This document shows positions 9,538-30,787 of a stretch of DNA of 50,048 nt, in pieces (the stretch's first letter is position 1; each line of letters opens with the position of its first letter). The stretch is taken from the sequence record MH051918; one strand, written 5' to 3'. Under the pieces are notes generated by a model, which was not told the DNA's origin, did no database searches, and worked only from the letters and a program-made list of their open reading frames with translations. The position numbers were made by a program, and so were the translations under genes. Origin of the DNA: Escherichia phage vB_EcoS_IME347.

Positions 9538-9561
9538 AAACCCGCCTCGGCGGGTTTTTTT
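9538..9561 (+). terminator. intrinsic terminator (end of left-arm early block)
   Basis: Stem CCCGC-ctcg-GCGGG (9541-9554) followed by T7. Confidence 0.8.
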
Positions 9562-9580
9562 ACGTCTGGAGTATGATAAA

Positions 9581-9598
9581 ATAGCACGAAATGTTAAA
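9581..9598 (+). promoter_or_regulatory. box copy in the terS leader
   Basis: ATAGCACGAAATGTTAAA lies between TGaTAAAAT (9574-9582) and the GGAGGA RBS. No -10 lies 22 nt downstream. Confidence 0.45.
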
Positions 9599-9614
9599 CA
9601 TCGGAGGACGTTTT

Positions 9615-10139
9615 ATGGAACGGAAAGAGAAAGCGCCCGTAGTGCAGGGCGGTAATTTTAAGGAGCTATACCGAAAGAAATTCGGAACGATTATCGGAAA
9701 ATCAGCCAGCTTCACGCCTGAACAGGTTTTCGATCTGGCGGTGAAGTATTTCACGTGGGCGGAGGACAACGCAATTAAAGCCTCTGAGACAGCGAGTTTT
9801 CAGGGTGAAGTGGAGGAGTCACTCGTTCATAAACCGCGCGTGTTTACTCACAACGGCTTCCGCCTGTTCCTTGGGATCAGCGAGTCGGCGGTCACGAAGT
9901 GGCGGCGACAGGAAGATTTCGCAGAGGTGATGGAGTTCGTTGATACGGTAATCAGCGAGCAGAAATTCCAGCTTGCAGCTAACGGCGTGATTAATGCCTC
10001 GTTCATCGGGAAAGACTTGGGGATCGACAAGCCAGCGACAATCAACATCGACAACCAAGCGAACGCCACGGCGGGCGCGATCGCCTCCACTGAGTCCGCG
10101 ATGCGCGATGCGGTAGAGAGTATTCTGGATAACCTTTAA
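9615..10139 (+). CDS. terS: terminase small subunit (putative), 174 aa
   Basis: Track ORF 9591.. trimmed to ATG 9615 (GGAGGA 6 nt upstream). Sits immediately upstream of terL. Size and N-terminal region are typical of phage small terminases. Confidence 0.6.
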   Translation: MERKEKAPVVQGGNFKELYRKKFGTIIGKSASFTPEQVFDLAVKYFTWAEDNAIKASETASFQGEVEESLVHKPRVFTHNGFRLFLGISESAVTKWRRQEDFAEVMEFVDTVISEQKFQLAANGVINASFIGKDLGIDKPATINIDNQANATAGAIASTESAMRDAVESILDNL

Positions 10140-10144
10140 TCTTC

Positions 10145-10163
10145 GGGCGGTTCGCCGCCCTTT
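10145..10163 (+). other. GC hairpin between terS and terL (weak terminator/attenuator)
   Basis: GGGCGG-ttcg-CCGCCC followed by only TTT, then a GGAG RBS. Confidence 0.4.
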
Positions 10164-10172
10164 GGAGTTTTC

Positions 10173-11744
10173 ATGTTAGTGTGGGAAGAACTGGACGCAA
10201 CGCAAAAGCTTGCGATCAAGAAAATGAGCGAGGCAAGTTTCGAAAAGATGATTCGGATCTGGTTTCAGCTTATTCAGGCGCAGCAATTTAAACCTAACTG
10301 GCATCACCTTTACCTTTGTCACGAGGTGGAGGAAATCATCGCCGGGCGGCGCGGGAATACGATCTTCAACGTAACGCCGGGTTCCGGTAAAACCGAAGTG
10401 TTTTCGATTCACCTCCCTGTGTACGCGATGCTTCGCGTGAACAAGATCCGAAACCTGAACGTGTCGTTTGCCGATAGTCTCGTCAAGCGTAACAGCAAGC
10501 GAGTGCGAGAAATCATCGCATCGAAAGAGTTCCAAGAGTTATGGCCTTGCGGGTTCGCCACGTCCAAAGATGATGAAATTCAGGTTCTCAATCAGGCTGG
10601 CAAGGTGTGGTTCGAACTGATATCCAAGGCGGCTGGCGGACAAATTACGGGTTCTCGTGGTGGCTACATGAGCGACGGATTCTCCGGGATGGTGATGCTT
10701 GACGATATCGACAAGCCGGACGATATGTTTTCCAAGGTCAAGCGAGAGCGTACACACACGCTCCTGAAGAATACAATCCGAAGCCGAAGGATGCACAACG
10801 AAACGCCGATTATCGCCATACAGCAGCGCCTACACGCGCAGGATTCGACGTGGTTCATGATGTCGGGCGGAATGGGGATAGACTTCGAACAGATCTCAAT
10901 CCCGGCTCTCGTTACTGAGGAATACGGGCAATCGCTTCCTGAATGGTTACGCCCTCACTTCGAGAAGGATGTTCTCTCGTCCGAGTATGTGATGATAGAC
11001 GGAGTGAAGCATTACAGCTTCTGGCCTGACAAGGAATCTGTTCACGATCTGATTGCATTGCGAGAGGCAGACCAGTACACGTTCGACTCGCAGTACCAGC
11101 AGCGCCCGATCGCGCTTGGTGGCTCCGTGTTTAACTCGGAGTGGTGGACGTACTACGGAAACAGCCTTGAGGCTGACGAACCAGATCCCGGCAAGTTTGA
11201 CTATCGTTTCATTACGGCTGATACCGCTCAGAAAACAGGTGAGCTTAATGACTACACTGTATTCTGTCTTTGGGGTAAGAAAAACGATAAGGTGTACTTT
11301 ATCGACGGGGTTCGCGGAAAGTGGAAAGCGCCGGAAATGGAGACTCAGTTTAAATCATTCGTTAGCACGGCATGGCGTCACAATAAGTCGATGGGCGTAC
11401 TCAGAAAAATCTACGTGGAGGATAAAGCGAGCGGGACGGGCTTGATTCAGAATCTGGAGAAGAAAACTCCCGTCCCGATCACGCCATTGCAGCGAAATAA
11501 GGATAAGGTTACTCGCGCGATGGATGCGCAGCCAGTAATCAAGGCCGGGCGCGTTGTTCTGCCTGAATCGCATCCTATGCTTTCCGAAATCATCACGGAG
11601 CATAGCGCATTCACATACGACGACACGCACCCTCACGACGATATTGTCGATAACTTCATGGATGCGGCAAACATCGAACTTCTGACGATAGACGATCCTA
11701 TCGAACGAATGAAACGCCTTGCGGGAATGGCAAAGCGCAAGTAA
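10173..11744 (+). CDS. terL: terminase large subunit, 523 aa
   Basis: Walker A in VTPGSGKTE, Walker B-like MVMLDDID, and a C-terminal nuclease-type acidic region. Sits upstream of the portal gene. Confidence 0.9.
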   Translation: MLVWEELDATQKLAIKKMSEASFEKMIRIWFQLIQAQQFKPNWHHLYLCHEVEEIIAGRRGNTIFNVTPGSGKTEVFSIHLPVYAMLRVNKIRNLNVSFADSLVKRNSKRVREIIASKEFQELWPCGFATSKDDEIQVLNQAGKVWFELISKAAGGQITGSRGGYMSDGFSGMVMLDDIDKPDDMFSKVKRERTHTLLKNTIRSRRMHNETPIIAIQQRLHAQDSTWFMMSGGMGIDFEQISIPALVTEEYGQSLPEWLRPHFEKDVLSSEYVMIDGVKHYSFWPDKESVHDLIALREADQYTFDSQYQQRPIALGGSVFNSEWWTYYGNSLEADEPDPGKFDYRFITADTAQKTGELNDYTVFCLWGKKNDKVYFIDGVRGKWKAPEMETQFKSFVSTAWRHNKSMGVLRKIYVEDKASGTGLIQNLEKKTPVPITPLQRNKDKVTRAMDAQPVIKAGRVVLPESHPMLSEIITEHSAFTYDDTHPHDDIVDNFMDAANIELLTIDDPIERMKRLAGMAKRK

Positions 11745-11758
11745 ACGAGGTATAATCA

Positions 11759-11784
11759 GGGCTGGATTTTTCCAGCCCTTTTTT
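11759..11784 (+). terminator. intrinsic terminator after terL
   Basis: GGGCTGGA-tttt-TCCAGCCC followed by T6, then ATTGGAGGTA. Confidence 0.8.
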
Positions 11785-11797
11785 ATTGGAGGTAGTA

Positions 11798-13111
11798 ATG
11801 AAAATTGTTAAGCAAGATGGGTACAACGAGATCTTTAACGGCGGTGCTGAAGGCGCTCCAAAACCTTTCTACGTAAGCAATCCGCTTGCTTACGGGTTGG
11901 GTTATCTTTACGAGAATAACGGTCTTGCTCGTCGAATCATCGACGTTGTACCGGAAGAAATGGTAGCGCCCGGATTCAAGGTTTCTGGTGTGCAGGATGA
12001 AGCGGCCTTTCGCTCCTCGTGGGATGAACTGGAAATTGAAGGTCATATCGTTGATGCGCTTGCGTGGCGTCGCCTGTATGGTGGTTCAGCTATCGTGGCG
12101 ATCATCAATGACGGTCGGAAGCTAACCTCTCCGGCAAAACCCGAGGGTGTGCTGGAAGGCGTCCGAGTGTACGATCGGGATCAGGTTCAAGTGGAGAAGA
12201 AAGAAACCAACGCGCGAAACATTCGCTACGGCGAGCCTGTTTTGTACAAGATTTCCCCCGGCGACGGGCTGACCCCTTATCTTGTTCACCACACCCGAAT
12301 CAAGATTCTGGACGGCGAACGCCTTCCCCTTCAGCAGCGAAAGATGAATGACGGATGGGGCGCTTCAGTCCTGAATAAGTCTCTGATTGAAGCGATTTAC
12401 GATTACGAGTATTGCGAGGAGCTTGCGACTCAATTACTACGCCGTAAGCAGCAAGCAGTTTGGAAGGTTAAAGGGTTGGCGGAAATGTGTGACGACGACG
12501 AAGCGCAATTCGCTGCACGAATCCGATTGGCTCAGGTGGATGATAATTCCGGTGTCGGTAAGGCGGTTGGTATCGATGCGGAAACGGAGGAATACGAGAT
12601 CCTAAACTCCGACGTTAACGGTGTGTCTGAATTCCTTCAGGGCAAATTCGATCGCATCGTGTCGCTATCCGGGATTCACGAAATCATCCTGAAGAATAAG
12701 AACGTCGGCGGCGTAAGCGCAAGCCAGAATACGGCGCTTGAGACTTTCTATAAGTTGATTGACCGCCAGCGCGCGGAGCATTACCTCCCGATTCTGGAAT
12801 TTCTGCTCCCGTACATGCTGCACGAAAATGAATGGTCTGTGGAGTTCGAACCGCTCTCCATGCCTTCGGAAAAGGAAGCGTCGGAAACAACGAAGAATCA
12901 CGTTGAGGCTATTCGCGGTGCTCTGGAAGATCAGATGATTGACTTAGAAGAGGCTCGCGATACATTGCAATCCGTTGCGCCAATGTTTAAGCTGAAAGAC
13001 CTGAACCACAAAGAGCTTGAGAGCCGTATGCAGGAACAACAGCAGCAAGAGCAGGAACCGGGCGTTAGCGAAGTAATCAGCGAATCGGAGGGAGAAGAGG
13101 GTGAAGATTAA
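11798..13111 (+). CDS. portal protein, 437 aa
   Basis: Track ORF 11786 (TTG) trimmed to ATG 11798 after GGAGG. Follows terL, has the right size, and has an acidic C-terminus. The family looks DUF1073-like. Confidence 0.85.
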   Translation: MKIVKQDGYNEIFNGGAEGAPKPFYVSNPLAYGLGYLYENNGLARRIIDVVPEEMVAPGFKVSGVQDEAAFRSSWDELEIEGHIVDALAWRRLYGGSAIVAIINDGRKLTSPAKPEGVLEGVRVYDRDQVQVEKKETNARNIRYGEPVLYKISPGDGLTPYLVHHTRIKILDGERLPLQQRKMNDGWGASVLNKSLIEAIYDYEYCEELATQLLRRKQQAVWKVKGLAEMCDDDEAQFAARIRLAQVDDNSGVGKAVGIDAETEEYEILNSDVNGVSEFLQGKFDRIVSLSGIHEIILKNKNVGGVSASQNTALETFYKLIDRQRAEHYLPILEFLLPYMLHENEWSVEFEPLSMPSEKEASETTKNHVEAIRGALEDQMIDLEEARDTLQSVAPMFKLKDLNHKELESRMQEQQQQEQEPGVSEVISESEGEEGED

Positions 13112-13865
13112 CGGGATCGCTAAGAAATGGCGCTTTCCTGAATCCAGCGAGCGGCAACTGAGCCGCTCAATGGAGCAATTTACGGGCGCGATCGTCGCCC
13201 GTATGCAGGAGAGTTTTAAGCCGATGAAGTGGGATGCTGACGAAGAGCAGATCGATCAGACTGAACGTGACTTGCTGGATTATGCTGAAGAGCTAATCGC
13301 CGCTCTGTTCGTATCTCTCCCGGCGTTGGCGTACACCATCTACAAGTTCAACTCAAAGCAGTTTTTGAAGGTGGCGCGTAGTGCTGGAGGGGGAAAGAAC
13401 GAGTCCGTAATGTTGCTTGCTCTGATTGGTGCAAACGGCTCCGAGCCGTGGTATTCGCCTCAGTACAAACTGTGGGAGTCTCAGGCCAAAACATCGATCA
13501 GGAAGTTCGCTGCGAATGCGATTACTGACTTCACGGACAGGCTTCGCAATGCTGCGGCTAACGGGTACGATCGCGAACGTGCTTACGAGGAAACCAATCA
13601 GAGATATAAGGTTTATTCATCTTGGGCGCGTAACCGTGCATCAGGGATCGTGACCACTTGGAACAGCAGAATGATGCGCCAACGTCTGAAGGATGCTCAA
13701 GTTACGCATTACTTTTGGCGTGGAATGATGGATTTACGCGAACGCGAGAAACATGTAAGATGGGAGGGAAAACGCATCCCTATCGACAGTAATCACATAT
13801 TCCCCGGCGAGGAATACAACTGCCGTTGTTGGGCTGTCCCTGACTTCTCAAAAATTGGAGATTAA
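13101..13865 (+). CDS. head morphogenesis protein (Mu F / SPP1 gp7-like), 254 aa
   Basis: Track ORF with a GTG start overlapping the portal stop. Sits after the portal gene. C-terminal FPGEEYNCRCWAVP is typical of the Mu-F family. Confidence 0.75.
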   Translation: MKINGIAKKWRFPESSERQLSRSMEQFTGAIVARMQESFKPMKWDADEEQIDQTERDLLDYAEELIAALFVSLPALAYTIYKFNSKQFLKVARSAGGGKNESVMLLALIGANGSEPWYSPQYKLWESQAKTSIRKFAANAITDFTDRLRNAAANGYDRERAYEETNQRYKVYSSWARNRASGIVTTWNSRMMRQRLKDAQVTHYFWRGMMDLREREKHVRWEGKRIPIDSNHIFPGEEYNCRCWAVPDFSKIGD

Positions 13866-13868
13866 ATA

Positions 13869-14975
13869 ATGAAGGCAAAGCAAAGGTTCGACAGTGTAAA
13901 AATCAAGGCGCACTTTGATGAACATGGTTTCTTGGTTGACCGTCCGATCGTGGCGCGAATCGGCGCTCAAACGTACCGCACCCCGCATGGGGATCGAGTT
14001 GAGTTCCGCCCGGCCTCGGAGGTTTTCAAGGCTGAATCTCTGGAGACTTATGCGGGCAAGCCCGTAACTATCGGTCACGTAACCGTAAATCCAGACAATG
14101 CGGAAAGCGTGGTTGTGGGATCTTGCGCTGGCTCTGGAATCCCGTCCGGGATCGGGGTTGAGGTTCCAATGTCAATCTACAGCCAGCGAGCGATCGACAA
14201 AGCGAAGTCGAAGGCGGCGGCGGAAATCTCCGTGGGCTACACGTCCGAAGATATCGAAAAGCCGGGTTGGGGTTCCAATGAAACTGGCGAATACATCTTC
14301 GAAGAGGATATGAAGCAGGACGAAGCGCCCCCGGCTGGATGGGTTCACTTTGACGCCCTGCAAACGAACATCAAAGTTAATCACGTCGCGCTTGTGTTTA
14401 AAGGCCGTGCGGGAATCGCTAAATTGAACCTTGATAGCGAGCAGGAATTCCCGTATGATAACGACGTTGACACAAACAAAGAGGATAATGAAATGACTGT
14501 AAAAATTAAGATCGACTCCGCAGAAGTGGAAGTGACCAAGGATGTTGCCGCACACATCGAAAAGCTGAATGCTGAAATCGCAACTGTTCAGGGCAAGGCC
14601 GATGGTCTGGAAGCTGAACGCGATAACCTGAAAGAGAAGGTTGACGGCATCCCGGCGCAAATCGAAGCGGCTGTAGCTCAGGCGAAAGCTGACGCTGAAG
14701 CAATGACCGCGCTTATCGCTCTCGCCTCCGAAGCTGGCGTGAAGTGTGACGGTCTGGACGCTAAAGGAATCAAGGTAGCATTCATCAAAGAAACTACCGG
14801 GAAAGATGTTTCCACCAAATCAGACGCCTATATCGAAACAGCTTTCGACTTTGCGAAAGATTGTGATAACATGGCCTCACAGCGTCAAAGCATTAAAGGC
14901 GATGCCGCGAAAGAAAAAGAGGACGAAAAGCCGGAACTGACTCCGAACTCTCGCCTCGCTAAACTCAACAAGTAA
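13869..14975 (+). CDS. prohead scaffold/protease-like protein (DUF2213-like), 368 aa
   Basis: The N-terminus resembles the DUF2213 pattern (...ARIGAQTYRTPHGDRVEFRPASEVF...GKPVTIGHV). Ala/Glu-rich coiled-coil C-terminal half. Sits before the capsid genes. Confidence 0.6.
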   Translation: MKAKQRFDSVKIKAHFDEHGFLVDRPIVARIGAQTYRTPHGDRVEFRPASEVFKAESLETYAGKPVTIGHVTVNPDNAESVVVGSCAGSGIPSGIGVEVPMSIYSQRAIDKAKSKAAAEISVGYTSEDIEKPGWGSNETGEYIFEEDMKQDEAPPAGWVHFDALQTNIKVNHVALVFKGRAGIAKLNLDSEQEFPYDNDVDTNKEDNEMTVKIKIDSAEVEVTKDVAAHIEKLNAEIATVQGKADGLEAERDNLKEKVDGIPAQIEAAVAQAKADAEAMTALIALASEAGVKCDGLDAKGIKVAFIKETTGKDVSTKSDAYIETAFDFAKDCDNMASQRQSIKGDAAKEKEDEKPELTPNSRLAKLNK

Positions 14976-14987
14976 GGAGAAGAAATT

Positions 14988-15464
14988 ATGGCAATTGCAG
15001 CAAGCTATCAGAAAGATATGTCTATCGCCGTTCCGGGTATGGTGGCAGACACCTCCCGTTACAACATCGACGGCGCTTGCGTACTGAGCGGTGACGTTGA
15101 TATCCTCGTCGGCGTTGCGGTTCAGGTTGACAACGTTCAGGCCGTTGACGGTCACAAAGTCATGAAGCCTATGGCATCCGGCGGCAAGGCTTATGGTGTG
15201 GCGATTCGCTCCCACTTCCAGACTAAAGGCAAAGATGGTCAGATGTACTATGAAGCGGGCGGCGGCATTAACGTAATGACCTCCGGGCGCGTTTGGGTTA
15301 TCTCCAAAGATTCCACCGCTCCGGCGTTTGGTGAAACTGTCAACTTTGACGTTGACGGACAGCAGAAAGCAGACGGCGCGATCGAAACCGCATGGACTTA
15401 TGCGGGCGGCTTCACTACCTATCAGGATTTGAAGCTGGTTGAAATCCAATTGCATCAACTGTAA
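14988..15464 (+). CDS. head decoration/cement-like protein, paralog A, 158 aa
   Basis: Track ORF with an AAGGAG RBS. Shares YNIDGACV, GVAVQV, GRVWV, (A/S)PAFGE and AGGF with the next gene. Lies between the scaffold and capsid genes. Confidence 0.6.
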   Translation: MAIAASYQKDMSIAVPGMVADTSRYNIDGACVLSGDVDILVGVAVQVDNVQAVDGHKVMKPMASGGKAYGVAIRSHFQTKGKDGQMYYEAGGGINVMTSGRVWVISKDSTAPAFGETVNFDVDGQQKADGAIETAWTYAGGFTTYQDLKLVEIQLHQL

Positions 15465-15479
15465 TAAGTAGCTAATATA

Positions 15480-15507
15480 GGGATTACCTTTTGGTAGTCC
15501 CTTTTTT
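15480..15507 (+). terminator. intrinsic terminator after decoration paralog A
   Basis: GGGATTACC-tttt-GGTAGTCCC (one mismatch) followed by T6, then ATTGGAGGTA. Confidence 0.7.
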
Positions 15508-15522
15508 ATTGGAGGTAATAAA

Positions 15523-16017
15523 ATGTCTGATTATGGTAATTTGTCTTTGGGGGTTAGCTGTCCCGGCCTCCTGTCCGATACGTCGGACTATAATATCGAC
15601 GGCGCTTGTGTGGCTCGTGGGGAAATTCCTTTTGGTGTCGCTGTTCAGGTTGTCGAGATCGTGGATGGTGTCAAGGTTGTCTCCGCGCTGAGTGACGGCA
15701 AGCCGTATGGTGTGTCGATGCGATCGCAATACGAAAACTTGTCGGGCGTGGTTCAGGACGGCGAACCTGTGAGCGTTATCTCTCATGGTCGAGTTTGGGT
15801 TCGCACCTCTCTGGAGGATTCGCCCGCTTTCGGTGAGAAGTTATCCTTCGAATCTGGCGGAGAAGTATCTGAGGCCGGGGAGGCTGGCTGGCCTTTCGCT
15901 GGAGGTTTCGTTAAGTTTGGTGAGGGCTGGATTGTAGAGGTTCAGGTTTTGCAAAACCGATACTACATCCCACCTGAGCCGGAACCTGAACCAGAACAAG
16001 ACCCGGAAGAGCCGTAG
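15523..16017 (+). CDS. head decoration/cement-like protein, paralog B with acidic PE-rich tail, 164 aa
   Basis: Track ORF, paralog of 14988-15464. Its C-terminus PPEPEPEPEQDPEEP ends at TAG 16015-16017, and the same composition continues in frame to 16080. Confidence 0.65.
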   Translation: MSDYGNLSLGVSCPGLLSDTSDYNIDGACVARGEIPFGVAVQVVEIVDGVKVVSALSDGKPYGVSMRSQYENLSGVVQDGEPVSVISHGRVWVRTSLEDSPAFGEKLSFESGGEVSEAGEAGWPFAGGFVKFGEGWIVEVQVLQNRYYIPPEPEPEPEQDPEEP

Positions 16018-16080
16018 CCGGAAGATCCTGAACCGGAAGAGGGAGGCGAAACTGACCCGGAAGAAGGTTCAGAGGGTTAA
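16018..16080 (+). other. in-frame post-TAG extension (20 codons, PEDPEPEEGGETDPEEGSEG, then TAA)
   Basis: Direct translation in the frame of 15523-16017. CCGGAAGA units recur on both sides of the TAG. Confidence 0.6.
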
Positions 16081-16092
16081 CACAAAAACAGT

Positions 16093-16120
16093 TTGACGCT
16101 TTAACAAAAAGTGCTATCAT
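16093..16120 (+). promoter_or_regulatory. sigma70-like promoter TTGACG-16-TGcTATCAT (capsid gene)
   Basis: TTGACG at 16093-16098 and TATCAT at 16115-16120. The predicted +1 (~16127) lies inside the 5' arm of terminator 16121-16148. Confidence 0.55.
16100..16117 (-). promoter_or_regulatory. inverted box copy forming the spacer and TGn of the capsid promoter
   Basis: The plus strand reads TTTAACAAAAAGTGCTAT, embedded in TTGACG-16-TATCAT. Confidence 0.5.
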
Positions 16121-16148
16121 AAAGCCGTTATCACTTAACGGCTTTTTT
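16121..16148 (+). terminator. intrinsic terminator immediately upstream of the capsid gene
   Basis: AGCCGTTA-tcact-TAACGGCT followed by T6. Confidence 0.75.
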
Positions 16149-16167
16149 CACAAAAGAGGATGTAAAC

Positions 16168-17145
16168 ATGACTAAGAAATATGACGAATTCGAAGCAACC
16201 GTAGTTGGCTCCCACCTGAAGATGCGCGGTGAAAAAGCCGATGCTGATACTCTCGGTATCTGGACTGCTCAGGAGCTTCACAAGCTGAAAAATCAGTCTT
16301 ACGAAAAAGACTATCCGGCAGGTTCCGCTCTGCGAGTATTCCCGGTAACTAACGATCTGTCCCCGGTTGATAAGACCTTCGAATATCAGACCTTTGATAA
16401 GGTTGGTATCGCGCAGATTATCACCGACTACACCGATGATCTTCCTCTGGTTGATGCTATGTCGTCCAGCGAGTTTGGCAAAGTTTTCCGCCTCGGTAAC
16501 GCATACCTGATTTCAATTGACGAAATCAAAGCAGGTCAAGCAACTGGCAAGTCGCTGTCTAATCGCAAGGTTAACGCCGCGCAACTGGCACACGATCAGT
16601 TAGTCAACCGCCTGGTGTTTAAAGGTTCTGTTCCTCACAAAATTGTGAGCGTGTTTAATCACCCGAACATTACCAAGATCACCTCCAAAGGCTGGACGTC
16701 AACCGCTGGTAGCGTAGTAACCAAAAACCCGGAAACCGCAGAAGAAGAACTGACGGCGGCTATTGAGTCGATCCAGACTCTGACGATGGGCGCACACCGT
16801 GCAACGCACATCCTGATCCCGCCGTCAATGCGCAAGGTTCTGACTGTTCGTATGCCTGACTCCACTGAAAGCTATCTGGATTACTTCATGAAGCAGAACG
16901 GCGGAATCACCATCGAATCAATCGCGGAACTGGAGGATATCGACGGCGCTGGCACGAAGGGTGCTCTGGTTTACGAGTACGACCCGATGAATATGTCCAT
17001 CGAAATTCCTGAAGCGTTCAACATGCTTCCTGCGCAGCCGAAAGACCTGCACTTCAAAGTGCCTTGCACCTCTAAGTGTACTGGTCTTACGATTTACCGC
17101 CCACTAACGATTGTCCTGATTACAGGACTTGCAGTAAGCGAGTAA
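16168..17145 (+). CDS. major capsid protein, 325 aa
   Basis: Track ORF. Bracketed by terminators and has its own promoter. Size and position fit, and the sequence looks DUF2184-type. Confidence 0.8.
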   Translation: MTKKYDEFEATVVGSHLKMRGEKADADTLGIWTAQELHKLKNQSYEKDYPAGSALRVFPVTNDLSPVDKTFEYQTFDKVGIAQIITDYTDDLPLVDAMSSSEFGKVFRLGNAYLISIDEIKAGQATGKSLSNRKVNAAQLAHDQLVNRLVFKGSVPHKIVSVFNHPNITKITSKGWTSTAGSVVTKNPETAEEELTAAIESIQTLTMGAHRATHILIPPSMRKVLTVRMPDSTESYLDYFMKQNGGITIESIAELEDIDGAGTKGALVYEYDPMNMSIEIPEAFNMLPAQPKDLHFKVPCTSKCTGLTIYRPLTIVLITGLAVSE

Positions 17146-17158
17146 ATTGATTACTATA

Positions 17159-17186
17159 GGGACTCATTAATTTGAGTCCCTTTTTT
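17159..17186 (+). terminator. intrinsic terminator after the capsid gene
   Basis: GGGACTCA-ttaatt-TGAGTCCC followed by T6. Confidence 0.8.
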
Positions 17187-17205
17187 ATTATCTGGAGAAA
17201 CCAAA

Positions 17206-17499
17206 ATGGCTAAAGAACAAAAAACCAAAGCAACCGAAGAGCGCGTAGCGATTGTGAACGTCGGAACGGCGCTGATTTTCATCAACGGTGAAAAGCTGAT
17301 GCCGGATCAGGAAATTGAAATTGATGTGGCTCAACTGAAAACCTCCGGCGTTGAATACCTGTTCGGGCAGGGCGTGGTTATTGTCAAAGATAACTCCGCA
17401 TTAACCAATGAAGTGCGAGCACGAATTGAAGCGCGTCGCAAAGAAGATCCTACCGCTGGCAAGTCCCAAAAAGAACTTGAGGACGGCGGCGAGTTCTAA
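17206..17499 (+). CDS. hypothetical head-associated protein, 97 aa
   Basis: Track ORF with a CTGGAGAAA RBS after terminator 17159-17186. Confidence 0.7.
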   Translation: MAKEQKTKATEERVAIVNVGTALIFINGEKLMPDQEIEIDVAQLKTSGVEYLFGQGVVIVKDNSALTNEVRARIEARRKEDPTAGKSQKELEDGGEF

Positions 17500-17504
17500 A
17501 ACCG

Positions 17505-17521
17505 GGGCGCTATATGCGCCC
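17505..17521 (+). other. GC hairpin without a U-tract
   Basis: GGGCGC-tatat-GCGCCC followed by TTAATTG. Confidence 0.4.
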
Positions 17522-17546
17522 TTAATTGTATCTGGAGGAAAGCAAA

Positions 17547-17960
17547 ATGACTGAGCAGGAAACCCAAGAAACTTACAACATCCTCGTTGCACTGGCTCCG
17601 CCTATGCAGAATCTAAACCCCGAGCAGATTAAGATCTGGATTGATTTAGCTAGCGACTACGTTTGCAAGAAGAAGTTCAAAAGTAAATACCTGAAGGCGG
17701 TTGCTCTGTACGCTCTTCACCTGATGGTGCTTGATGGTGCAATGAAGCAATCAACGGAAAGTGTAGAGTCAATGGGGCGGCGTGTAACGTCATTCTCTCT
17801 GAGCGGTGAATTCTCTCAGACGTTCGGTGATGTGTCGAAAACAACCTCCGCTGACGTTTTGGAGCAAACACCTTGGGGCAAGATGTATCGCGCATTGCTT
17901 CGCAAGAGTGGCGGCGGGATGGGTTTATTAACTGGATATCGTGCGGGGTGCAGACGATGA
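17547..17960 (+). CDS. head-tail adaptor/connector protein (putative), 137 aa
   Basis: Track ORF 17526.. trimmed to ATG 17547 after GGAGGAAAG. Position and helical N-terminus are typical of gp6-like adaptors. Confidence 0.6.
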
Positions 17961-19170: not shown

Positions 19171-19173
19171 ATT

Positions 19174-19836: not shown

Positions 19837-19843
19837 TCCCAAT

Positions 19844-19867
19844 GGGGGCGCTTGCGCTCCCTTTTTT
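19844..19867 (+). terminator. intrinsic terminator after the tail tube gene
   Basis: GGGGGCG-cttg-CGCTCCC (one G.U pair) followed by T6. Confidence 0.8.
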
Positions 19868-19871
19868 GTTT

Positions 19872-19880
19872 CTGTAGAAT
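19872..19880 (+). promoter_or_regulatory. CTGTAGAAT -10-like nonamer after a terminator
   Basis: Lies 5 nt after the T-run of terminator 19844-19867. The motif recurs at 23924, 26057, 41647 and 37379 (minus strand). Confidence 0.4.
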
Positions 19881-19907
19881 CACTGTATCAAATCAATACG
19901 GCGCTGT

Positions 19908-19925
19908 TTTAACAAAAAGTGCTAT
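19908..19925 (-). promoter_or_regulatory. inverted box copy upstream of the tail chaperone gene
   Basis: The plus strand reads TTTAACAAAAAGTGCTAT followed by CAC, giving TGcTATCAC. Lies 24 nt before ATG 19949. Confidence 0.45.
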
Positions 19926-19948
19926 CACACCAATCAGGAGAAATGACA

Positions 19949-20580: not shown

Positions 20581-20582
20581 CA

Positions 20583-20605
20583 AGCCGCCTTCGGGCGGTT
20601 TTTTT
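20583..20605 (+). terminator. intrinsic terminator after the chaperone genes
   Basis: CCGCC-ttcg-GGCGG followed by T7. Confidence 0.75.
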
Positions 20606-20623
20606 GTATCTGGAGGAATAATT

Positions 20624-23533: not shown

Positions 23534-23536
23534 GTA

Positions 23537-23890
23537 ATGGCAATTGTCGATCGCTTTACGTGGTGTACTCAGGTACAAAGCAACGGCGGCGCAATGACGA
23601 CGGAGAATAACGATCGTGAAGTTGTATTCGGGAACGGCTACCGACAGGTAGCCTCTTCCGGGTTCAATACGGAGCGGAGAATTTTCACCATCGTGTACGT
23701 CGGGGAGGATTGGAAGGACGTGAAAGAGTTTTTGACCGGGCATCGCCTGAAGCCGTTTATCTGGCTCCCTCCAGATGGTGAACTAGGGTTGTTCCTCACT
23801 AAAACCAACACGGTTGCAACCAAGCCGATCGCGCCGGGAGTGCAGGAAGTCACCGCCACTATAACGGAGCAGTTTACATCAATGCAGTAA
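23537..23890 (+). CDS. minor tail protein M-like, 117 aa
   Basis: First gene after the tape measure. Size and sequence pattern match lambda gpM-type proteins. Confidence 0.75.
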   Translation: MAIVDRFTWCTQVQSNGGAMTTENNDREVVFGNGYRQVASSGFNTERRIFTIVYVGEDWKDVKEFLTGHRLKPFIWLPPDGELGLFLTKTNTVATKPIAPGVQEVTATITEQFTSMQ

Positions 23891-23895
23891 CCAAA

Positions 23896-23919
23896 AGCCC
23901 GCCTTGCGCGGGTTTTTTT
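23896..23919 (+). terminator. intrinsic terminator after the M-like gene
   Basis: CCCGC-cttgc-GCGGG followed by T7. The core CCCGCCTTGCGCGGGTTTTTTT is identical to the copy at 26031-26052. Confidence 0.8.
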
Positions 23920-23923
23920 ATAG

Positions 23924-23932
23924 CTGTAGAAT
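23924..23932 (+). promoter_or_regulatory. CTGTAGAAT -10-like nonamer after a terminator
   Basis: Lies 5 nt after the T-run of terminator 23896-23919, upstream of the L-like gene. Confidence 0.4.
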
Positions 23933-23962
23933 AGATGAACATTTATAGAGGAGGTCAGGAAA

Positions 23963-24715
23963 ATGGCTACAGGAAAAGAGAAGTTTGATAACTGTCTGCA
24001 ATCGCTTTATCCCGGCGAGATTATCACGCTGGTAGAAATTGACGGAACGAAATTCGGGGCGCAGGTCTACCGATTCCATGCGGAGAATATCGCATACTCC
24101 CCGGCTGAATTGCTTCAGGCTGCGGAAACTGGAGTTCTCCCTCCGAAGGAAATCACGTTTCAGGGTGAACAGTACGGCGCTCGCCCGTTCGGGATTTCCG
24201 GGATCTCGTTCACCAGTAACGGCAAGGCCGGGAAACCAAAACTCAGCCTGTCTAACCTTGATTCTCAGGTTTCCGCGCTAATCCGATCCTACAACGGCAT
24301 GATGCAAGCGAAGGTTACAATTTGGGTTGCACCAAAAGACCTGATGGACGACGACGGCAATATTGAGGACGGAGCGTTTCGCAAGCTGGTATACTACATC
24401 GAAAGGCCGGACTATGCAGATCGTAACGTCGCCCGATTCGACTTGACCTCTCCATATGATATGGATGGGTTGATGATTCCGCCGCGCACTTCTCAGAGTG
24501 TTTGCTATTGGGCGCAACGTGGTTGGTATCGTTCCGGCAAGGGTTGCTCGTACAACGGGAGTAACTATTTCGATAAGGACAATAACCCGGTTTCCGATCC
24601 GTCATTGGACGTTTGCGCAGGTACTGTCACGGCCTGTAAACTTCGATTCGGACCCGATGCCCCGCTTGATTTTGGTGGCTGCGCGGTTGCTTCACTACAG
24701 AGGAAATATCAATGA
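23963..24715 (+). CDS. minor tail protein L-like, 250 aa
   Basis: Lambda gpL-like N-terminus (LYPGEIITLVEIDG). C-terminal Cys cluster (CYW...C..C.....C) resembles the gpL Fe-S motif. Confidence 0.8.
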   Translation: MATGKEKFDNCLQSLYPGEIITLVEIDGTKFGAQVYRFHAENIAYSPAELLQAAETGVLPPKEITFQGEQYGARPFGISGISFTSNGKAGKPKLSLSNLDSQVSALIRSYNGMMQAKVTIWVAPKDLMDDDGNIEDGAFRKLVYYIERPDYADRNVARFDLTSPYDMDGLMIPPRTSQSVCYWAQRGWYRSGKGCSYNGSNYFDKDNNPVSDPSLDVCAGTVTACKLRFGPDAPLDFGGCAVASLQRKYQ

Positions 24716-25425
24716 TTCAGGCAAAGATTAAGATCGAAATCATGAGACACGCGCGGGATGTTTATCCCGCTGAATGCTGCGGCATTGTCACGCAAAAGAG
24801 CCGGGTTCAGCGTTATCACCGGATCGATAACGTCCACAAGGAGCCGGAGAAGCATTTCGAAATGGATGCACAACAATATGCCGATGCTCTGGAGGCTGGC
24901 GAACTGGTGAGTGTGGTTCACTCCCATACGGGCGATGGAGCTACTACTCTTCCTTCGGCGCATGATACTTGTGTCTGTAACGAAATGGGCGTGATGTGGA
25001 CAATCGTTAGTTTGCCGGAGGGTGATATGAGATTCGTTGAGCCGTCGCAGCTTCCTCTGATTGGTCGCCCTTGGTCGCTCGGTTCGTTCGATTGTTGGGG
25101 GCTTGTCATGTCGTGGCATAAGGAGCATGGGATCGAGCTTAACGATTTCCGCAAGCCTTACGAGTGGTGGAAGCCGGAATTCGGGGAGAATCTTTATCAG
25201 GAAAACTATCTGATCGAGGGATTCGTTCCAACCAATCAGGAGCCGAAGCCGGGAGACATGATTATCATGCAATTGCAGTCTCCAGTTTGGAACCACGCCG
25301 GAATCTACGTCGGAGACAATCAAATTCTACATCACGCATTCGGCAAGTTATCGCGCAACGATATCTATTCTGGATGGTATCGGGATCATACCGTAATGGT
25401 GTGCAGACATAAGGAGCTTAAATAA
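24712..25425 (+). CDS. tail tip protein K-like (MPN/JAB + NlpC/P60), 237 aa
   Basis: AECCGIV...HSH MPN-like N-terminal half and FDCWGLV...H NlpC/P60-like C-terminal half. ATGA overlap with the L-like gene. Confidence 0.8.
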   Translation: MIQAKIKIEIMRHARDVYPAECCGIVTQKSRVQRYHRIDNVHKEPEKHFEMDAQQYADALEAGELVSVVHSHTGDGATTLPSAHDTCVCNEMGVMWTIVSLPEGDMRFVEPSQLPLIGRPWSLGSFDCWGLVMSWHKEHGIELNDFRKPYEWWKPEFGENLYQENYLIEGFVPTNQEPKPGDMIIMQLQSPVWNHAGIYVGDNQILHHAFGKLSRNDIYSGWYRDHTVMVCRHKELK

Positions 25426-26024
25426 TGAGCGAGTTAAAAAAAATCAAGCTGTCCGGCTCTCTCGGGAAACGCTTCGGCGTTTTCCATTACCTTGCGGTTG
25501 ACAGTTACCCGGAAGCTATCCGGGCGCTGTCCTCGCAGGTGGAGGGGTTTAAGGACTACATGCAAAGCGAGGTTGGCTCGCGAATGAAGTACGCTGTATT
25601 TGTGGACGGGAAGAACATTGGACACAATAATGAGAAGGCTTTCCAGTGTGCGGACGAGGTTCGAATCCTCCCGATCCCAACTGGCTCAAAATCTGGTGGG
25701 TTGTTTCAGGTTGTCCTCGGTGCAGCAATTATGGCTACTGCATTCTTTACGGGCGGTGCTTCTCTCGCTGCAATGGGCGCTCTCGCATCCTCCGCTTTTA
25801 TGATGGGCGGCGCGATGGTTCTCGGTGGAGTAATGCAGATGATTTCACCGCAGCAGGGCGGGCAAAACTTCGAGGTTCAGTCGAGCAAAAATAAACCGTC
25901 GTATGCTTTCGGCGGCGCAGTGAATACCACGGCGGCAGGATATCCGATCCCGCTCCCGTATGGTGAAAGAACGTGCGGCGGAGCGACATTCTCCGCAGGT
26001 TCCTACGCTGAAGATATGGCATAA
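25425..26024 (+). CDS. tail assembly protein I-like, 199 aa
   Basis: Lambda gpI-type protein with a Gly/Ala-rich hydrophobic middle. TAATG overlap. Sits before the J-like gene. Confidence 0.75.
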   Translation: MSELKKIKLSGSLGKRFGVFHYLAVDSYPEAIRALSSQVEGFKDYMQSEVGSRMKYAVFVDGKNIGHNNEKAFQCADEVRILPIPTGSKSGGLFQVVLGAAIMATAFFTGGASLAAMGALASSAFMMGGAMVLGGVMQMISPQQGGQNFEVQSSKNKPSYAFGGAVNTTAAGYPIPLPYGERTCGGATFSAGSYAEDMA

Positions 26025-26028
26025 ATAA

Positions 26029-26053
26029 GACCCGCCTTGCGCGGGTTTTTTTT
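26029..26053 (+). terminator. intrinsic terminator after the I-like gene
   Basis: CCCGC-cttgc-GCGGG followed by T8. Confidence 0.8.
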
Positions 26054-26056
26054 CGC

Positions 26057-26065
26057 CTGTATAAT
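26057..26065 (+). promoter_or_regulatory. CTGTATAAT -10-like nonamer after a terminator
   Basis: Lies 4 nt after the T-run of terminator 26029-26053, upstream of the J-like gene. Confidence 0.4.
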
Positions 26066-26079
26066 GGCATCACCGATAA

Positions 26080-26097
26080 ATAGCACAAAAGGTTAAA
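26080..26097 (+). promoter_or_regulatory. box copy in the J-like gene leader
   Basis: ATAGCACAAAAGGTTAAA lies 14 nt after CTGTATAAT (26057-26065) and 4 nt before ATG 26102. Confidence 0.45.
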
Positions 26098-26101
26098 CAT
26101 C

Positions 26102-29100
26102 ATGAATCAAAAAGTGATAAGCGGCTCAAAGGGTGGCGGCGGAAGTCCGCACAAGCCCGTTGAAATGGAAGATAACCTGATCTCCATCAACAAAATCAGA
26201 GTTCTACTCGCTGTGTCTGACGGTGAAGTAGATCCCGATTTCGATATGTCCATGTTGTACTTGGACAACGTTCCAGTGATGAACAAAGACGGAACTTACA
26301 ACTACGAAGGAATCAAGGCGGAGTTCCGCCCCGGCACTCAGACGCAGGATTACATTCAGGGGTTCACCGACAGCGCAAGCGAAGTCACTATGAACCGGGT
26401 AATCAAAACTGACACCCCGTTTAGCATCAACGTTACGAACCGGAACCTTTCGGCAATCCGAATCAAGATGTTCATGGCTCGCGGCGTAAAGGTTGAGAGC
26501 AACGGCGACAAGAACGGCGTTCGCGTTGAATACAAGGTTGAAATGGCTGTGGATGGTGGAGCTTTCGAACCTGCACTCACTGACGTGATTGACGGAAAAA
26601 CAATGTCAGGATATGACCGTAGCCGCCGCATTAATCTGCCCTCGTTCAACTCTCAGGTGATCTTGCGAGTGTCTCGCGTAACGCCGGACTCCGACGATTC
26701 CAACCTGATTGACGAGATCCAGTTGCGCAGCTATGCGGAGGTTATTGACGCGAAGTTTCGTTATCCGCTGACCGGGCTACTGTTCGTTGAGTTCGATTCG
26801 CAGATGTTCCCGAACCAGATCCCGAACATTTCAATCAAAAAGAAATGGAAGGTTGTCAATGTACCGACGAACTACAACCCGGTAACTCGTGATTACTCTG
26901 GCACTTGGGACGGAACGTTTAAAAAGGCGTGGACGAACAACCCGGCTTGGGTTCTGTACGACATTATCACCAACCAACGTTACGGGCTTGACCAACGCGA
27001 GCTTGGGATTGATGTTGATAAGTGGTCGCTTTACGACGCCGGGCGCTATTGTGATCAGATGGTTCCAGACGGAAAGGGCGGAACCGAGCCGCGATATCTA
27101 TGCGACGTGGTTATTCAATCGCAGGTTGAGGCGTTTAAACTGGTGCGCGATATCTGCTCAATCTTCCGGGGTATGAGCTTTTGGAACGGCGAAAGCCTGT
27201 CTATTGTGATCGACAAGCCGCGCGAGCCGTCTTACATCTTCACGAACGAGAACGTTGTGAACGGTAATTTCTCATACGCTTTCGCGAGTGAGAAAAGCAT
27301 GTATACGGTGTGCAATGTCCAGTTTGATGATGAAGAGAACCTTTATCAACAGGACGTGGAGCCTGTTTTCGATACTGATGCGGCTCGCAGATTCGGCAAC
27401 AACCCGACGAGCATTACAGCGATCGGATGTACCCGGCGCAGTGAGGCTAATCGCCGGGGGCGCTGGATTCTCAGAACCAATTTACGAAGCACTACGATCA
27501 GTTTTGCTACCGGATTGGAAGGAATGATTCCGCAGATTGGCGATGTTATCGCGGTGGCGGATAACTCATTCTCAAGCAACCTCACGCTTAACCTTTCTGG
27601 TCGCGTGATGGAAGTTTCGGGATTGCAGGTTTTCACCGCCTTTAAGGTTGACGCTCGCGCAGGTGATTTTATTGTCGTAAATAAGCCGGATGGGAAGCCC
27701 GAGAAGAGGACTATCGCATCGGTATCGCCTGACGGCAAGACTATACAGTTAAACGTCGCATTCAGCTTCTCTGTGGCTCCTAACACTATCTTTGCAATTG
27801 ACCGCACGGACGTAGCGTTACAGCAATTCGTTGTTACGGATATTTCCAAGGGCGACAATGAAGAAGAGTTTGTGTTTAGCATTACTGCGGTTGAGTATGA
27901 CCCGAACAAGTACGACGCGATCGACTACGGAGTAAACGTTGACGAAAGGCCTACAAGCATTGTCGATCCTGACAAGCTTCCTCAGCCGCAAAACGTGCAG
28001 ATTGAGTCCTTCTCTCGTGTGGTTCAGGGCGTAAGCGTTGAAACGATGGTTATCAGTTGGGATAAGGTTCAGTATGCGGCTCAGTACGAAATCCAATGGC
28101 GAAAGGGTAATGGCAACTGGATTAACACGACACCAACGGCGAACAATGAAACGTTTATCGAAGGCATTTACGCCGGGCAATACTTCGTTCGGGTTCGCGC
28201 TGTATCGTCGGCGGGCAATGCTTCAATGTGGTCTGAAGTTGTCAGCGCATCACTGACGGGTAAAGTCGGAGAGCCGGGTTCGCCAATTAACTTCACGGCG
28301 TCCGATGATGTTGTTTTTGGCATTCGCCTGAAATGGGGCATGCCGGAAGGGACTGAAGATACCGCATATATTGAGGTTCAGCAGTCACCAAACAACAGCA
28401 TTGAAAATGCATCACTGCTAACGCTCGTTCCATACCCTCAACATGAGTATTTCCATACTCCACTTGAGGCCGGGAAGATGATCTTCTACCGCATTCGTGC
28501 GATAGACAGGATCGGAAATGTGTCCGGGTGGACTGACCTGATTCCGGGGATTGCCTCAACTGACGTTGAGAGCATTATCGGGGAAATCAAGGTTGATATC
28601 GAAAACTCCGAGGGGTTCAAGTGGTTGCAGGAAAATGCGGTAGATGCAAACTCGAAGATTCACGGGGCGGCTGAAGCGATAATCGAAACCACGCTGGCTA
28701 ACGATCGTGATGTTCGTATTCAGCGCAAGCGGAACGGGAAGTTCACTGCTCAGTTTAAGCAGTCATTCCAGTTAATCGCAGATGAAACGCAAGCAAGAGT
28801 TGAGCAGTATCAGGAGTTACAGGCCGACTTTGACGGAAAGATAACCGCAACTTCAACTCAGCTTAACCAGGCGATCGCTAACGAAAGGGAGGCGAGAACA
28901 ACTCAGGTAAACCAGATTAGCGCAACGTTCGGCGGAAACCTTGACGATCTTAGCGATAGGGTTGATGGTGATATCGGGGATCTTAATGGAAGGGTTGATG
29001 GTGAGGTTCGGGCTCGTCAAGCTGCGATCTCAAACGTAAACCAAGCCATTGCGAACGAAACCGAGGCGCGAGTTCAGGCTATCAATGATTTGAAAGCGCA

Positions 29101-29683
29101 GGTTGGCAGCGACATTCAAGGCCAGCTAACGCAGTTGAATCAGGCGATCGCCAATGAGACTTCGGCGCGAGTTTCGGCTGATACGGCTCTTAGCACAAGG
29201 ATCGGGAATAACACTGCGGCTCTGAACCAGAAACTTGATTCATGGGCTAACGCAACATCGGTTGGCGCTATGTACGGCGTCAAGCTTGGGTTGAGGTATA
29301 ACGGGGTTGACTACTCCGCAGGGTTGGCAATGTCTCTGGTTGGATCTGGTAATACTGTCAAGTCTCAGCTTTTGCTACAGGCCGACAGGTTCGCAGTTTT
29401 CAACGGGGCAAACAACCAATACCGATATCCGTTCGTTGTTGAGGGCGGGCAGGTTATACTCAGCAGCACGGTTATTAAGGACGGTTTCATTACGAACGCG
29501 ATGATCGGGAACGAGATCAAGTCAAACAACTATGTTGCAGGTCAGACAGGATGGAGGATTGATAAGAACGGTAACTTTGAGATTAACGGCAAGACGGGAA
29601 CCGGAAGGTTGACCATCAACAATAACACTGTGAGCGTTTACGACGCGAACAACCGCCTACGCGTTCGCATGGGCTTGTGGTAA
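26102..29683 (+). CDS. tail tip / host-specificity protein J-like, 1193 aa
   Basis: The N-terminus GSKGGGGSPHKPVE...DNL is typical of lambda J. FN3-like middle. C-terminal coiled repeats LNQAIANE-EAR occur three times. Confidence 0.9.
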   Translation: MNQKVISGSKGGGGSPHKPVEMEDNLISINKIRVLLAVSDGEVDPDFDMSMLYLDNVPVMNKDGTYNYEGIKAEFRPGTQTQDYIQGFTDSASEVTMNRVIKTDTPFSINVTNRNLSAIRIKMFMARGVKVESNGDKNGVRVEYKVEMAVDGGAFEPALTDVIDGKTMSGYDRSRRINLPSFNSQVILRVSRVTPDSDDSNLIDEIQLRSYAEVIDAKFRYPLTGLLFVEFDSQMFPNQIPNISIKKKWKVVNVPTNYNPVTRDYSGTWDGTFKKAWTNNPAWVLYDIITNQRYGLDQRELGIDVDKWSLYDAGRYCDQMVPDGKGGTEPRYLCDVVIQSQVEAFKLVRDICSIFRGMSFWNGESLSIVIDKPREPSYIFTNENVVNGNFSYAFASEKSMYTVCNVQFDDEENLYQQDVEPVFDTDAARRFGNNPTSITAIGCTRRSEANRRGRWILRTNLRSTTISFATGLEGMIPQIGDVIAVADNSFSSNLTLNLSGRVMEVSGLQVFTAFKVDARAGDFIVVNKPDGKPEKRTIASVSPDGKTIQLNVAFSFSVAPNTIFAIDRTDVALQQFVVTDISKGDNEEEFVFSITAVEYDPNKYDAIDYGVNVDERPTSIVDPDKLPQPQNVQIESFSRVVQGVSVETMVISWDKVQYAAQYEIQWRKGNGNWINTTPTANNETFIEGIYAGQYFVRVRAVSSAGNASMWSEVVSASLTGKVGEPGSPINFTASDDVVFGIRLKWGMPEGTEDTAYIEVQQSPNNSIENASLLTLVPYPQHEYFHTPLEAGKMIFYRIRAIDRIGNVSGWTDLIPGIASTDVESIIGEIKVDIENSEGFKWLQENAVDANSKIHGAAEAIIETTLANDRDVRIQRKRNGKFTAQFKQSFQLIADETQARVEQYQELQADFDGKITATSTQLNQAIANEREARTTQVNQISATFGGNLDDLSDRVDGDIGDLNGRVDGEVRARQAAISNVNQAIANETEARVQAINDLKAQVGSDIQGQLTQLNQAIANETSARVSADTALSTRIGNNTAALNQKLDSWANATSVGAMYGVKLGLRYNGVDYSAGLAMSLVGSGNTVKSQLLLQADRFAVFNGANNQYRYPFVVEGGQVILSSTVIKDGFITNAMIGNEIKSNNYVAGQTGWRIDKNGNFEINGKTGTGRLTINNNTVSVYDANNRLRVRMGLW
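28862..29170 (+). repeat. three LNQAIANE(R/T)(E/S)AR heptad-like repeats in the J-like C-terminal region
   Basis: DNA copies start near 28862, 29036 and 29135. Two carry the GCGATCGC palindrome. Confidence 0.7.
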
Positions 29684-29684
29684 T

Positions 29685-29712
29685 AAAAAAGGCTCCTTAT
29701 TGGAGCCTTTTC
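29685..29712. terminator. bidirectional terminator between the J-like gene and the leftward genes
   Basis: A6, then GGCTCC-ttatt-GGAGCC, then T4. Confidence 0.75.
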
Positions 29713-30053: not shown

Positions 30054-30084
30054 TGGTGTTTCCTCGTTTCGTTTTGATGAATGC

Positions 30085-30778: not shown

Positions 30779-30787
30779 AATTCCCCC

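Follow-up and report, generated by a model that had tools for sequence, protein, structure and literature searches.

Terminators sharing nucleotides with predicted host-type promoters in the late region of the T1-like phage vB_EcoS_IME347

Late regions described so far and the locus compared

The subject of this report is the late region of Escherichia phage vB_EcoS_IME347 (sequence record MH051918; the window is the whole stretch of 50,048 nucleotides (nt) that was analysed), in which intrinsic terminators between the genes adjoin predicted promoter elements. A terminator-rich late region is itself a T1-family trait, annotated since 2004, and is not new. In the RefSeq record of phage T1 (NC_005833) rho-independent terminators are annotated at all ten homologous junctions, namely before terS and after terL, gp49, the major head protein, gp46, the major tail protein, the chaperones, gp37, gp34 and gp33; the record annotates terminators only and no promoters. 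The late-region units of T1 have been called "transcriptons" (Roberts et al. 2004, as summarised in PMC11447400). Phage TLS has eleven late terminators at homologous positions, including one beside an inverted repeat copy before the capsid gene (PMC11447400, Table S1), and its 21-nt direct repeats (DRs), reported in 21 copies, have the same consensus as here, aaATAGCACnnnTTGnTAAAA (PMC11447400). The TLS authors called three promoters, left the DRs and the transcripton model unresolved, and did not describe hairpin-interleaved -10/-35 elements (PMC11447400). Papers on further T1-like genomes give each of them 18-21 terminators. The accessible literature seems to contain no explicit account of the shared-nucleotide geometry of terminators and predicted promoters reported below, or of its conservation across the family.

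As in phage lambda, the structural genes lie in the order terminase, head, tail on one strand. The lambda late operon is served by one late promoter, the Q protein and its qut site; no counterpart of any of the three turned up here, where several internal promoter elements occur. In T7 the major capsid gene is a unit of its own (phi10 promoter-gene 10-T-phi), with a strong promoter upstream and a terminator downstream. The capsid gene here likewise looks like its own unit, so arranged that the most abundant protein would be given the most transcript; T7, however, relies on its own RNA polymerase and one leaky terminator, while here the promoter elements are of the host sigma-70 type and overlap the terminators. 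With f1/M13 the likeness is that promoters and terminators would grade mRNA to protein stoichiometry without a dedicated late regulator, but in f1 many promoters run into two terminators, whereas here almost all units end in a terminator of their own, to which the next predicted promoter is fused.

By its sequence the phage is a T1-like siphophage whose nearest relatives are in the Drexlerviridae, Tunavirinae, Sertoctavirus: Escherichia phages SRT8 and BrunoManser and Citrobacter phage IME-JL8 share ~78% nucleotide identity over 80-82% of the 20-kb interval, and T1 falls below that identity. The plus-strand genes run terS, terL, portal, minor capsid, protease, decoration A, decoration B, major capsid and g9, then head-tail connectors, tail tube, two tape-measure chaperones, tape measure and the M-, L-, K-, I- and J-like genes. 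We propose that this region is probably a chain of short insulated transcription units, not one long operon, with sigma-70 re-initiation at most junctions. Each unit would close at a strong intrinsic terminator, and at eight junctions the terminator would share nucleotides with the host sigma-70 promoter that restarts transcription.

Terminators and the elements fused to them

Terminators were scanned for as perfect stems (6 bp or more, four or more G-C pairs) closing a loop of 3-8 nt, with five or more T among the 6 nt that follow. This strict scan replaced an earlier one (RNAfold on the 40 nt 5' of each T tract) that was too permissive and missed stems entering the T tract. Nine plus-strand sites were found in 9500-29750, at 9539, 11758, 15479, 16123, 17158, 19844, 20582, 23895 and 26028, against 0.105 +/- 0.34 (maximum 2) in 200 dinucleotide shuffles. 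All nine are intergenic and in the same orientation as the genes, with stems of 6-10 bp, hairpin free energies of -11.6 to -17.7 kcal/mol and T runs of 6 to 8 (T6-T8); termination efficiency at the hairpins is inferred. Every late-region intergenic gap longer than ~25 nt holds a hairpin. The sole minus-strand strict site in the same interval is a bidirectional hairpin at 29688. The terminators at the two ends of the region are:

9539..9561, plus strand: terminator T0, closing the early block; AACCCGCC-TCGG-CGGGTT then T7; -13.9 kcal/mol
29687..29711, both strands: tenth terminator, bidirectional, 3' of the J-like gene; T4CT4 on the plus strand, T6 on the minus strand

The T1 homologue of T0 is annotated at 8322-8344. 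The 29687-29711 terminator serves as the end both of the late operon and of the minus-strand genes that converge on it. Beyond its J terminator T1 has co-oriented genes, whereas here a convergent unrelated module follows. An earlier annotation of the window, made by a model from the letters and their reading frames (the first-pass annotation), had claimed at least ten late terminators, and nine strict plus-strand sites where 0.1 were expected, together with the bidirectional site, bear this out. Its statement that T6-T8 follows all ten stems is correct for the nine strict sites and fails at the J-like gene, where the plus strand has T4CT4. Hairpins at 10145-10160 (between terS and terL) and 17504-17521 (between g9 and g10) lack the required T tract.

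Relatives for the comparison of junctions were drawn from GenBank and IMG/VR, 124 loci altogether. At eight of nine junctions the relatives have 4-16 distinct stems, and only before terS is there a single one. Formal covariation on MAFFT alignments was dropped because MAFFT aligns on TTGC and the T tract and so shifts the hairpin register between rows; an arm-swap control was used instead. Pairing was ~100% within a phage and fell to 47-75% when 3' arms were exchanged between phages, a test that is partly circular since the hairpins had been found by pairing.

The elements joined to these terminators fall into two main classes. In class A, a TAnnnT hexamer ends 0-2 nt 5' of the hairpin; this is so at four terminators in the window (SD, Shine-Dalgarno sequence):

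11751..11784, plus strand: class A junction 3' of terL; -10 TATAAT 11751-56, hairpin 11758-11779, T6; SD GGAGG 11788-92, portal ATG 11798
15473..15507, plus strand: class A junction 3' of decoration A; -10 TAATAT 15473-78, hairpin 15479-15502, T6; SD GGAGG 15511-15, ATG 15523
16093..16148, plus strand: predicted capsid promoter fused to a terminator, class A junction 3' of decoration B; TTGACG 16093-98, 16-nt spacer, TGcTATCAT (-10 at 16115-20), hairpin 16123-43, T6
17152..17186, plus strand: class A junction 3' of the major capsid gene; -10 TACTAT 17152-57, hairpin 17158-81, T6; SD GGAGA 17194-98, ATG 17206

The chance of TAnnnT standing so at four or more of the ten window terminators is ~0.001. 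In relatives the hexamer lies 0-3 nt 5' of the stem in 18 of 31 sequences between terL and portal, in 18 of 19 between the two decoration genes and in essentially all between the major capsid gene and g9, its position fixed despite quite different stem sequences. Class A junction sequences with a T run have it in 92 of 95 cases, compared with 23 of 44 without a T run. The capsid promoter element, TTGACG-16-TGcTATCAT, matches the consensus at 10 of 12 positions plus TG, and its spacer holds an inverted DR (16100-16117); it is kept in ~56 unique relatives, with the hairpin always 0-3 nt further on and the stem sequence varying with compensation. T1 has the capsid promoter with the same inverted DR.

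Because the class A -10 ends so close to the hairpin (0-2 nt), the start site is predicted inside the 5' arm. A transcript arriving from upstream would form the whole hairpin and terminate; one begun at the promoter itself would be missing the 5' arm and would therefore escape the overlapped terminator and continue past it. Read-through RNA folds at -10.9 to -17.4 kcal/mol, while RNA beginning 7 nt past the class A -10 keeps -0.6 to -3.7 kcal/mol, in a residual stem detached from the U tract. Several of these stems open with GGG directly 3' of the -10, which may act as a discriminator element. A GGGA discriminator directly past the -10 can reportedly support -35-independent initiation, which may explain the class A sites, as a lead only. 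The first-pass annotation had overlooked this class (-10 directly 5' of the hairpin at 11751, 15473, 16115 and 17152), and likewise the known standing of the terminators in the T1 family. One other candidate near the capsid gene was set aside: at 17153-17162 ACTATAGGGA agrees at 10 of 10 positions with the core of the T7 class III promoter (-6 to +4), the upstream half is mismatched, and the match was judged coincidental. T1 has no annotated phage RNA polymerase, nor is one reported for TLS.

In class B the -35 lies within the hairpin and the -10 beyond it:

19844..19880, plus strand: class B junction 3' of the tail tube gene; hairpin 19844-61, T6, -35 TTGCGC 19852-57, 17-nt spacer, -10 TAGAAT 19875-80
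23895..23932, plus strand: class B junction 3' of the M-like gene; hairpin, T7, -35 TTGCGC 23904-09, 17-nt spacer, -10 TAGAAT 23927-32
26028..26065, plus strand: class B junction 3' of the I-like gene; hairpin, T8, -35 TTGCGC 26037-42, 17-nt spacer, -10 TATAAT 26060-65

Here TTGCGC in the loop would serve as -35, the T tract as the 17-nt spacer and TAKAAT beyond it as -10. TTGnnn and TAnnnT are 17 nt apart in 40 of 44 unique sequences between tail tube and chapG (16 nt in the other four), in 11 of 13 relatives between the I- and J-like genes and in 6 of 13 between the M- and L-like genes. An alignment of 20 sequences of the tail tube/chaperone junction has the -10 positions T-12, A-11, A-8 and T-7 invariant, the third position variable and TTGC at least 90% conserved, with zero indels between -35 and -10 though the hairpin symmetry axis moves one position. 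TTGnnn and TAnnnT 16-18 nt apart, with canonical conservation, are thus found at the class B sites, and the pattern is the signature expected of sigma-70 promoters whose position is fixed separately from that of the hairpin. The first-pass annotation had located CTGTAKAAT exactly (19872, 23924 and 26057) and had suggested "-35-less" promoters there. TTGCGC stands exactly 17 nt upstream, in the hairpin loop and 3' arm, at all three sites; the -35 and -10 being conserved with fixed spacing, these predicted promoters are therefore not -35-less. Additional copies of CTGTAKAAT occur at 41647 (plus) and 37387 (minus), the chance expectation being ~0.39 per strand. The identity of the 22-nt terminator cores at 23898 and 26031, CCCGCCTTGCGCGGGTTTTTTT, was reported correctly, and in T1 too a CCCGCCTTGCGCGGG hairpin follows both the M-like and the I-like gene.

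One junction has its promoter element wholly past the T tract, two have none, and one hairpin is of another kind:

9574..9582, plus strand: predicted extended -10 promoter of terS, TGaTAAAAT, 3' of the T tract; predicted start ~9589
17504..17527, plus strand: weak terminator or attenuator 3' of g9; GGGGCGC-TATA-TGCGCCC then TTAATT; no promoter element
20582..20605, plus strand: terminator or attenuator 3' of the tape-measure chaperones; AAGCCGCC-TTCG-GGCGGTTT then T7; SD GGAGGA 20612-17, tape-measure ATG 20624
10145..10160, plus strand: hairpin between terS and terL; GGGCGG-TTCG-CCGCCC; no proper T tract, not a canonical terminator

The terS element is conserved as TGnTA(A/T)AAT in 16 of the 16 unique relatives tabulated. 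The T1 homologue of the g9/g10 hairpin is annotated as a terminator (16445-16470). At the terminator between chapT and the tape-measure gene an adjacent TAnnnT was found in none of 12 relatives, and the window has no promoter element there. The g9/g10 and chaperone/tape-measure terminators are probably attenuators that would lower expression of the genes downstream. Tape-measure and M-like proteins are of low copy in siphophage tails, which fits. The terS/terL hairpin is kept through compensatory changes in relatives including T1, without T tracts, and could be a processing site, a means of translational coupling or an RNA-stabilising element.

If each transcripton is expected to have an RpoD-type promoter, conserved -10/-35 elements are found at eight of the ten junctions and two units are without a promoter element. 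Side-by-side sequences give T1 the same class A or class B geometry at each junction. The predicted starts are ~9589, 11761-65, 15483-87, 16125-29, 17162-66, ~19887, ~23939 and ~26072.

Re-initiation weighed against other readings

Several points weigh against re-initiation. Transcript data for T1-like phages were not found in the searchable literature, and for that reason promoter use and start sites are inferred from the elements, their geometry and their conservation, which are observed directly. Generic promoter-like matches show no excess over chance in the region, with 18 found and 17.4 expected. Strict criteria led the TLS authors to accept three promoters only (PMC11447400). The class A -35 hexamers, that of the capsid promoter excepted, match at 3-4 of 6 positions and lie in coding sequence, a directed search yielding only such weak matches, and no canonical TGn precedes the class A hexamers in the window; TGn is present at class A sites of some relatives. 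At the class B sites the TG beside the hexamers is one base too close for a canonical extended -10, and the M/L junction is without a TTG at usable spacing in 7 of 13 relatives. Finally, late timing would not be explained by constitutive sigma-70 promoters alone.

The first-pass annotation had offered three readings (antitermination, attenuation and re-initiation); re-initiation at most junctions plus attenuation at two fits best, and antitermination is without positive support. Were only the terS and capsid promoters real, leaky read-through would set a descending gradient of expression, and the TAnnnT hexamers would be incidental to A/T-rich flanks or stop-codon context. The weak class A -35 hexamers, the chance-level promoter matches and the three TLS promoters (PMC11447400) all agree with this, as does the hexamer's taking in the upstream stop codon in some lineages. 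We nevertheless hold attenuation throughout to be unlikely: the hexamer is fixed 0-3 nt before differing stems and is missing where a terminator has its -10 on the downstream side or has none, the 17-nt spacing from TTGC to TAnnAT is conserved without indels, and high-copy genes (portal, protease, decoration) would sit behind a -17.7 kcal/mol terminator with T6.

Processive antitermination, in which one or few late promoters would be followed by read-through driven by a phage factor, as with lambda Q, or by HK022 put-like RNA, is an improbable account, less favoured again. It would suit ten strong terminators in series, a tape measure-M unit without a promoter of its own, and the presence of the conserved 20-nt DR in the leaders predicted for terS, chapG and J; we retain it at all because most early proteins have no known function, one of them carrying an ASCH-like DUF3850 "RNA-binding" domain. 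As the first-pass annotation had stated, no Q/N-like antiterminator gene is recognisable: Pfam and PHROG scans of 38 distinct open reading frames (ORFs) gave no N-, Q- or other antiterminator family, the finds being a helix-turn-helix (HTH) "transcriptional regulator" (phrog_2856, a weak Cro/YdaS match) and the one DUF3850/ASCH-like protein. The T1 and Sfin-3 records annotate no antiterminator either. Its suggested check for put/nut-like RNA near 9560-9620 turned up none in Rfam, with no match at the gathering threshold and one chance-level match at E<=1; that interval holds a DR DNA repeat. The DR lies mostly 5' of early -10 elements and in both orientations, and therefore points to a DNA site, not an RNA signal. 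With conserved -10/-35 elements at eight junctions, antitermination is also made unnecessary. A likeness of the DR to rrn boxA was considered and rejected: the inverted DR holds CTTTAACAA (boxA being TGCTCTTTAACAA), the full 9-mer occurs in one copy only, the main DR class (GAATTGCTAAAA) is dissimilar, and most DRs are not in the transcribed orientation.

Nor do two of the three motifs said to trail the terminators call for a regulatory role. The first-pass annotation had each terminator followed by one of three motifs, but those at 16123 and 29687 have none, and motifs 1 and 2, proposed as post-terminator elements, consist of the T tract and the next gene's Shine-Dalgarno: GGAGG or GGAGA stands 5-7 nt 5' of the start codon (ATG) in the portal, decoration B, g9, g10 and tape-measure genes, and TTATTGGAGG and TCTGGAGGA are, by position, ribosome-binding sites 3' of T tracts. 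Motif 1, TTTTTTATTGGAGGTA, is exact at 11779 and 15502, while the minus-strand copy at 36840 agrees in 15 of 16 bases (TTTTTTATTGGAGATA). Motif 2, TnTCTGGAG(G/A)A, is exact at 17189, 17529 and 20607, and 9565 (GTCTGGAGTAT) falls outside the pattern; eight of the ten motif coordinates were exact, counting 17190 (true start 17189, one base off).

That the hairpins are mainly mRNA 3'-end stabilisers or processing sites, defining stable mono- or oligocistronic mRNAs after cleavage, is the least likely reading, since, for all the conserved hairpins without T tracts (terS/terL, the early-promoter hairpins and terL/portal in one clade), the late hairpins carry conserved T tracts directly 3' of the stem, the defining terminator feature, and stabilising and terminating roles are not mutually exclusive.

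The DR repeat, its neighbours and a possible switch

The DR is a 20-nt repeat, ATAGCAC-N3-TTGCTAAAA, partly palindromic (TAGCA-N5-TGCTA); ATAGCAC occurs 23 times in the window where ~6 copies are expected. Nineteen DR copies have a -10, usually TGn-extended, exactly 22 nt downstream, in the loop or 3' arm of a GGGG...CCCC hairpin without a T tract. These early-type copies lie at 969-7661 (plus), 35799, 37341, ~40900 and 42878 (plus), and at 47140-49879 and 36 (minus). The 19 DR/-10 units look like early promoters, and are absent from published analyses. Of the four late-region copies, one coincides with the predicted start of terS, one sits within the spacer of the capsid promoter, and the chaperone and J-like genes each have one in their predicted leader. 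Besides the capsid spacer, the late-region features that involve the DR are:

9581..9600, plus strand: DR element at terS, ATAGCACGAAATGTTAAACA; overlaps the predicted terS start; equals the TLS 21-nt repeat
19882..19925, minus strand: predicted DR-type promoter; inverted DR 19925-19906, 22 nt, TGaTACAGT (-10 at 19887-19882); interdigitates with the predicted chapG promoter
26080..26099, plus strand: DR element at the J-like gene, ATAGCACAAAAGGTTAAACA; in the predicted 5' leader, J-like ATG 26102

The 22-nt spacing and TGnTAnnnT of the 19882-19925 element are retained in T1, Sfin-3 and SRT8 despite a diverged spacer. Two predicted DR-type promoters, this one (minus) and one at 35799-35850, are directed antisense into the tail tube and primase genes. 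The second interdigitates with a predicted late-type tail fibre promoter, TTGCCG-17-TGaTAAAAT (35850-35822, minus). Interdigitated DR-type and late-type promoters may form a promoter-competition switch.

The HTH regulator gene (phrog_2856, 36884-37327, minus strand; in the region 36884-37420) is preceded by CTGTATAAT at 37387-37379 (minus), and the -10 within it overlaps the -10 of a divergent DR-type helicase promoter. The DR at 37341 lies in the regulator's predicted leader, as autoregulation would predict. This regulator is an obvious candidate for the DR-binding protein. At the terminator 3' of its gene (36845-36900, minus) a DR variant, AGAGCAC..., stands 22 nt 5' of a TAAACT hexamer in the hairpin loop; T6 and the primase ribosome-binding site follow, giving a third mode of promoter-terminator fusion.

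Some neighbouring features are recorded for completeness. Three minus-strand ORFs 3' of the J-like gene (29715-31609) belong to PHROG families without assigned function and have no homologue in T1 or SRT8, which at this position carry co-oriented gp32/gp31 and cor; a ~500-bp A/T-rich non-coding stretch (31097-31609) lies 3' of the three. Decoration protein B (15523-16017) has 164 aa, against ~255-260 aa in its T1 and BrunoManser counterparts, with an acidic, proline/glutamate-rich C-terminal tail and an N-terminus 38% identical to decoration protein A.

More tentatively, and with somewhat less confidence than we place in the chain of units itself, shared-nucleotide terminator-promoter composites throughout the Drexlerviridae could, with the DR, form a compact early-to-late switch that runs on host RNA polymerase alone. 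The composites would take two forms: in one the hairpin's 5' arm would be formed by the -10 together with a GGG-rich discriminator, placing the start site within the hairpin, and in the other the loop would contain the -35, with the T tract as spacer. Either way a unit would be insulated from the one upstream and its own transcripts would be immune to the overlapped terminator. The DR would be placed at a fixed 22 nt before the early extended -10, and at or just past late start sites.

T1-like phages, common laboratory contaminants and phage-therapy candidates, time and balance gene expression with host polymerase only. For the promoter half of the transcripton model the comparative evidence predicts starts to within a few bases, and which terminators would be bypassed and which would attenuate. 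If true, a terminator and a promoter built from shared nucleotides would amount to a compact natural insulator part, and this design would explain the near-absence of promoters in standard promoter-finder output for T1-like genomes.

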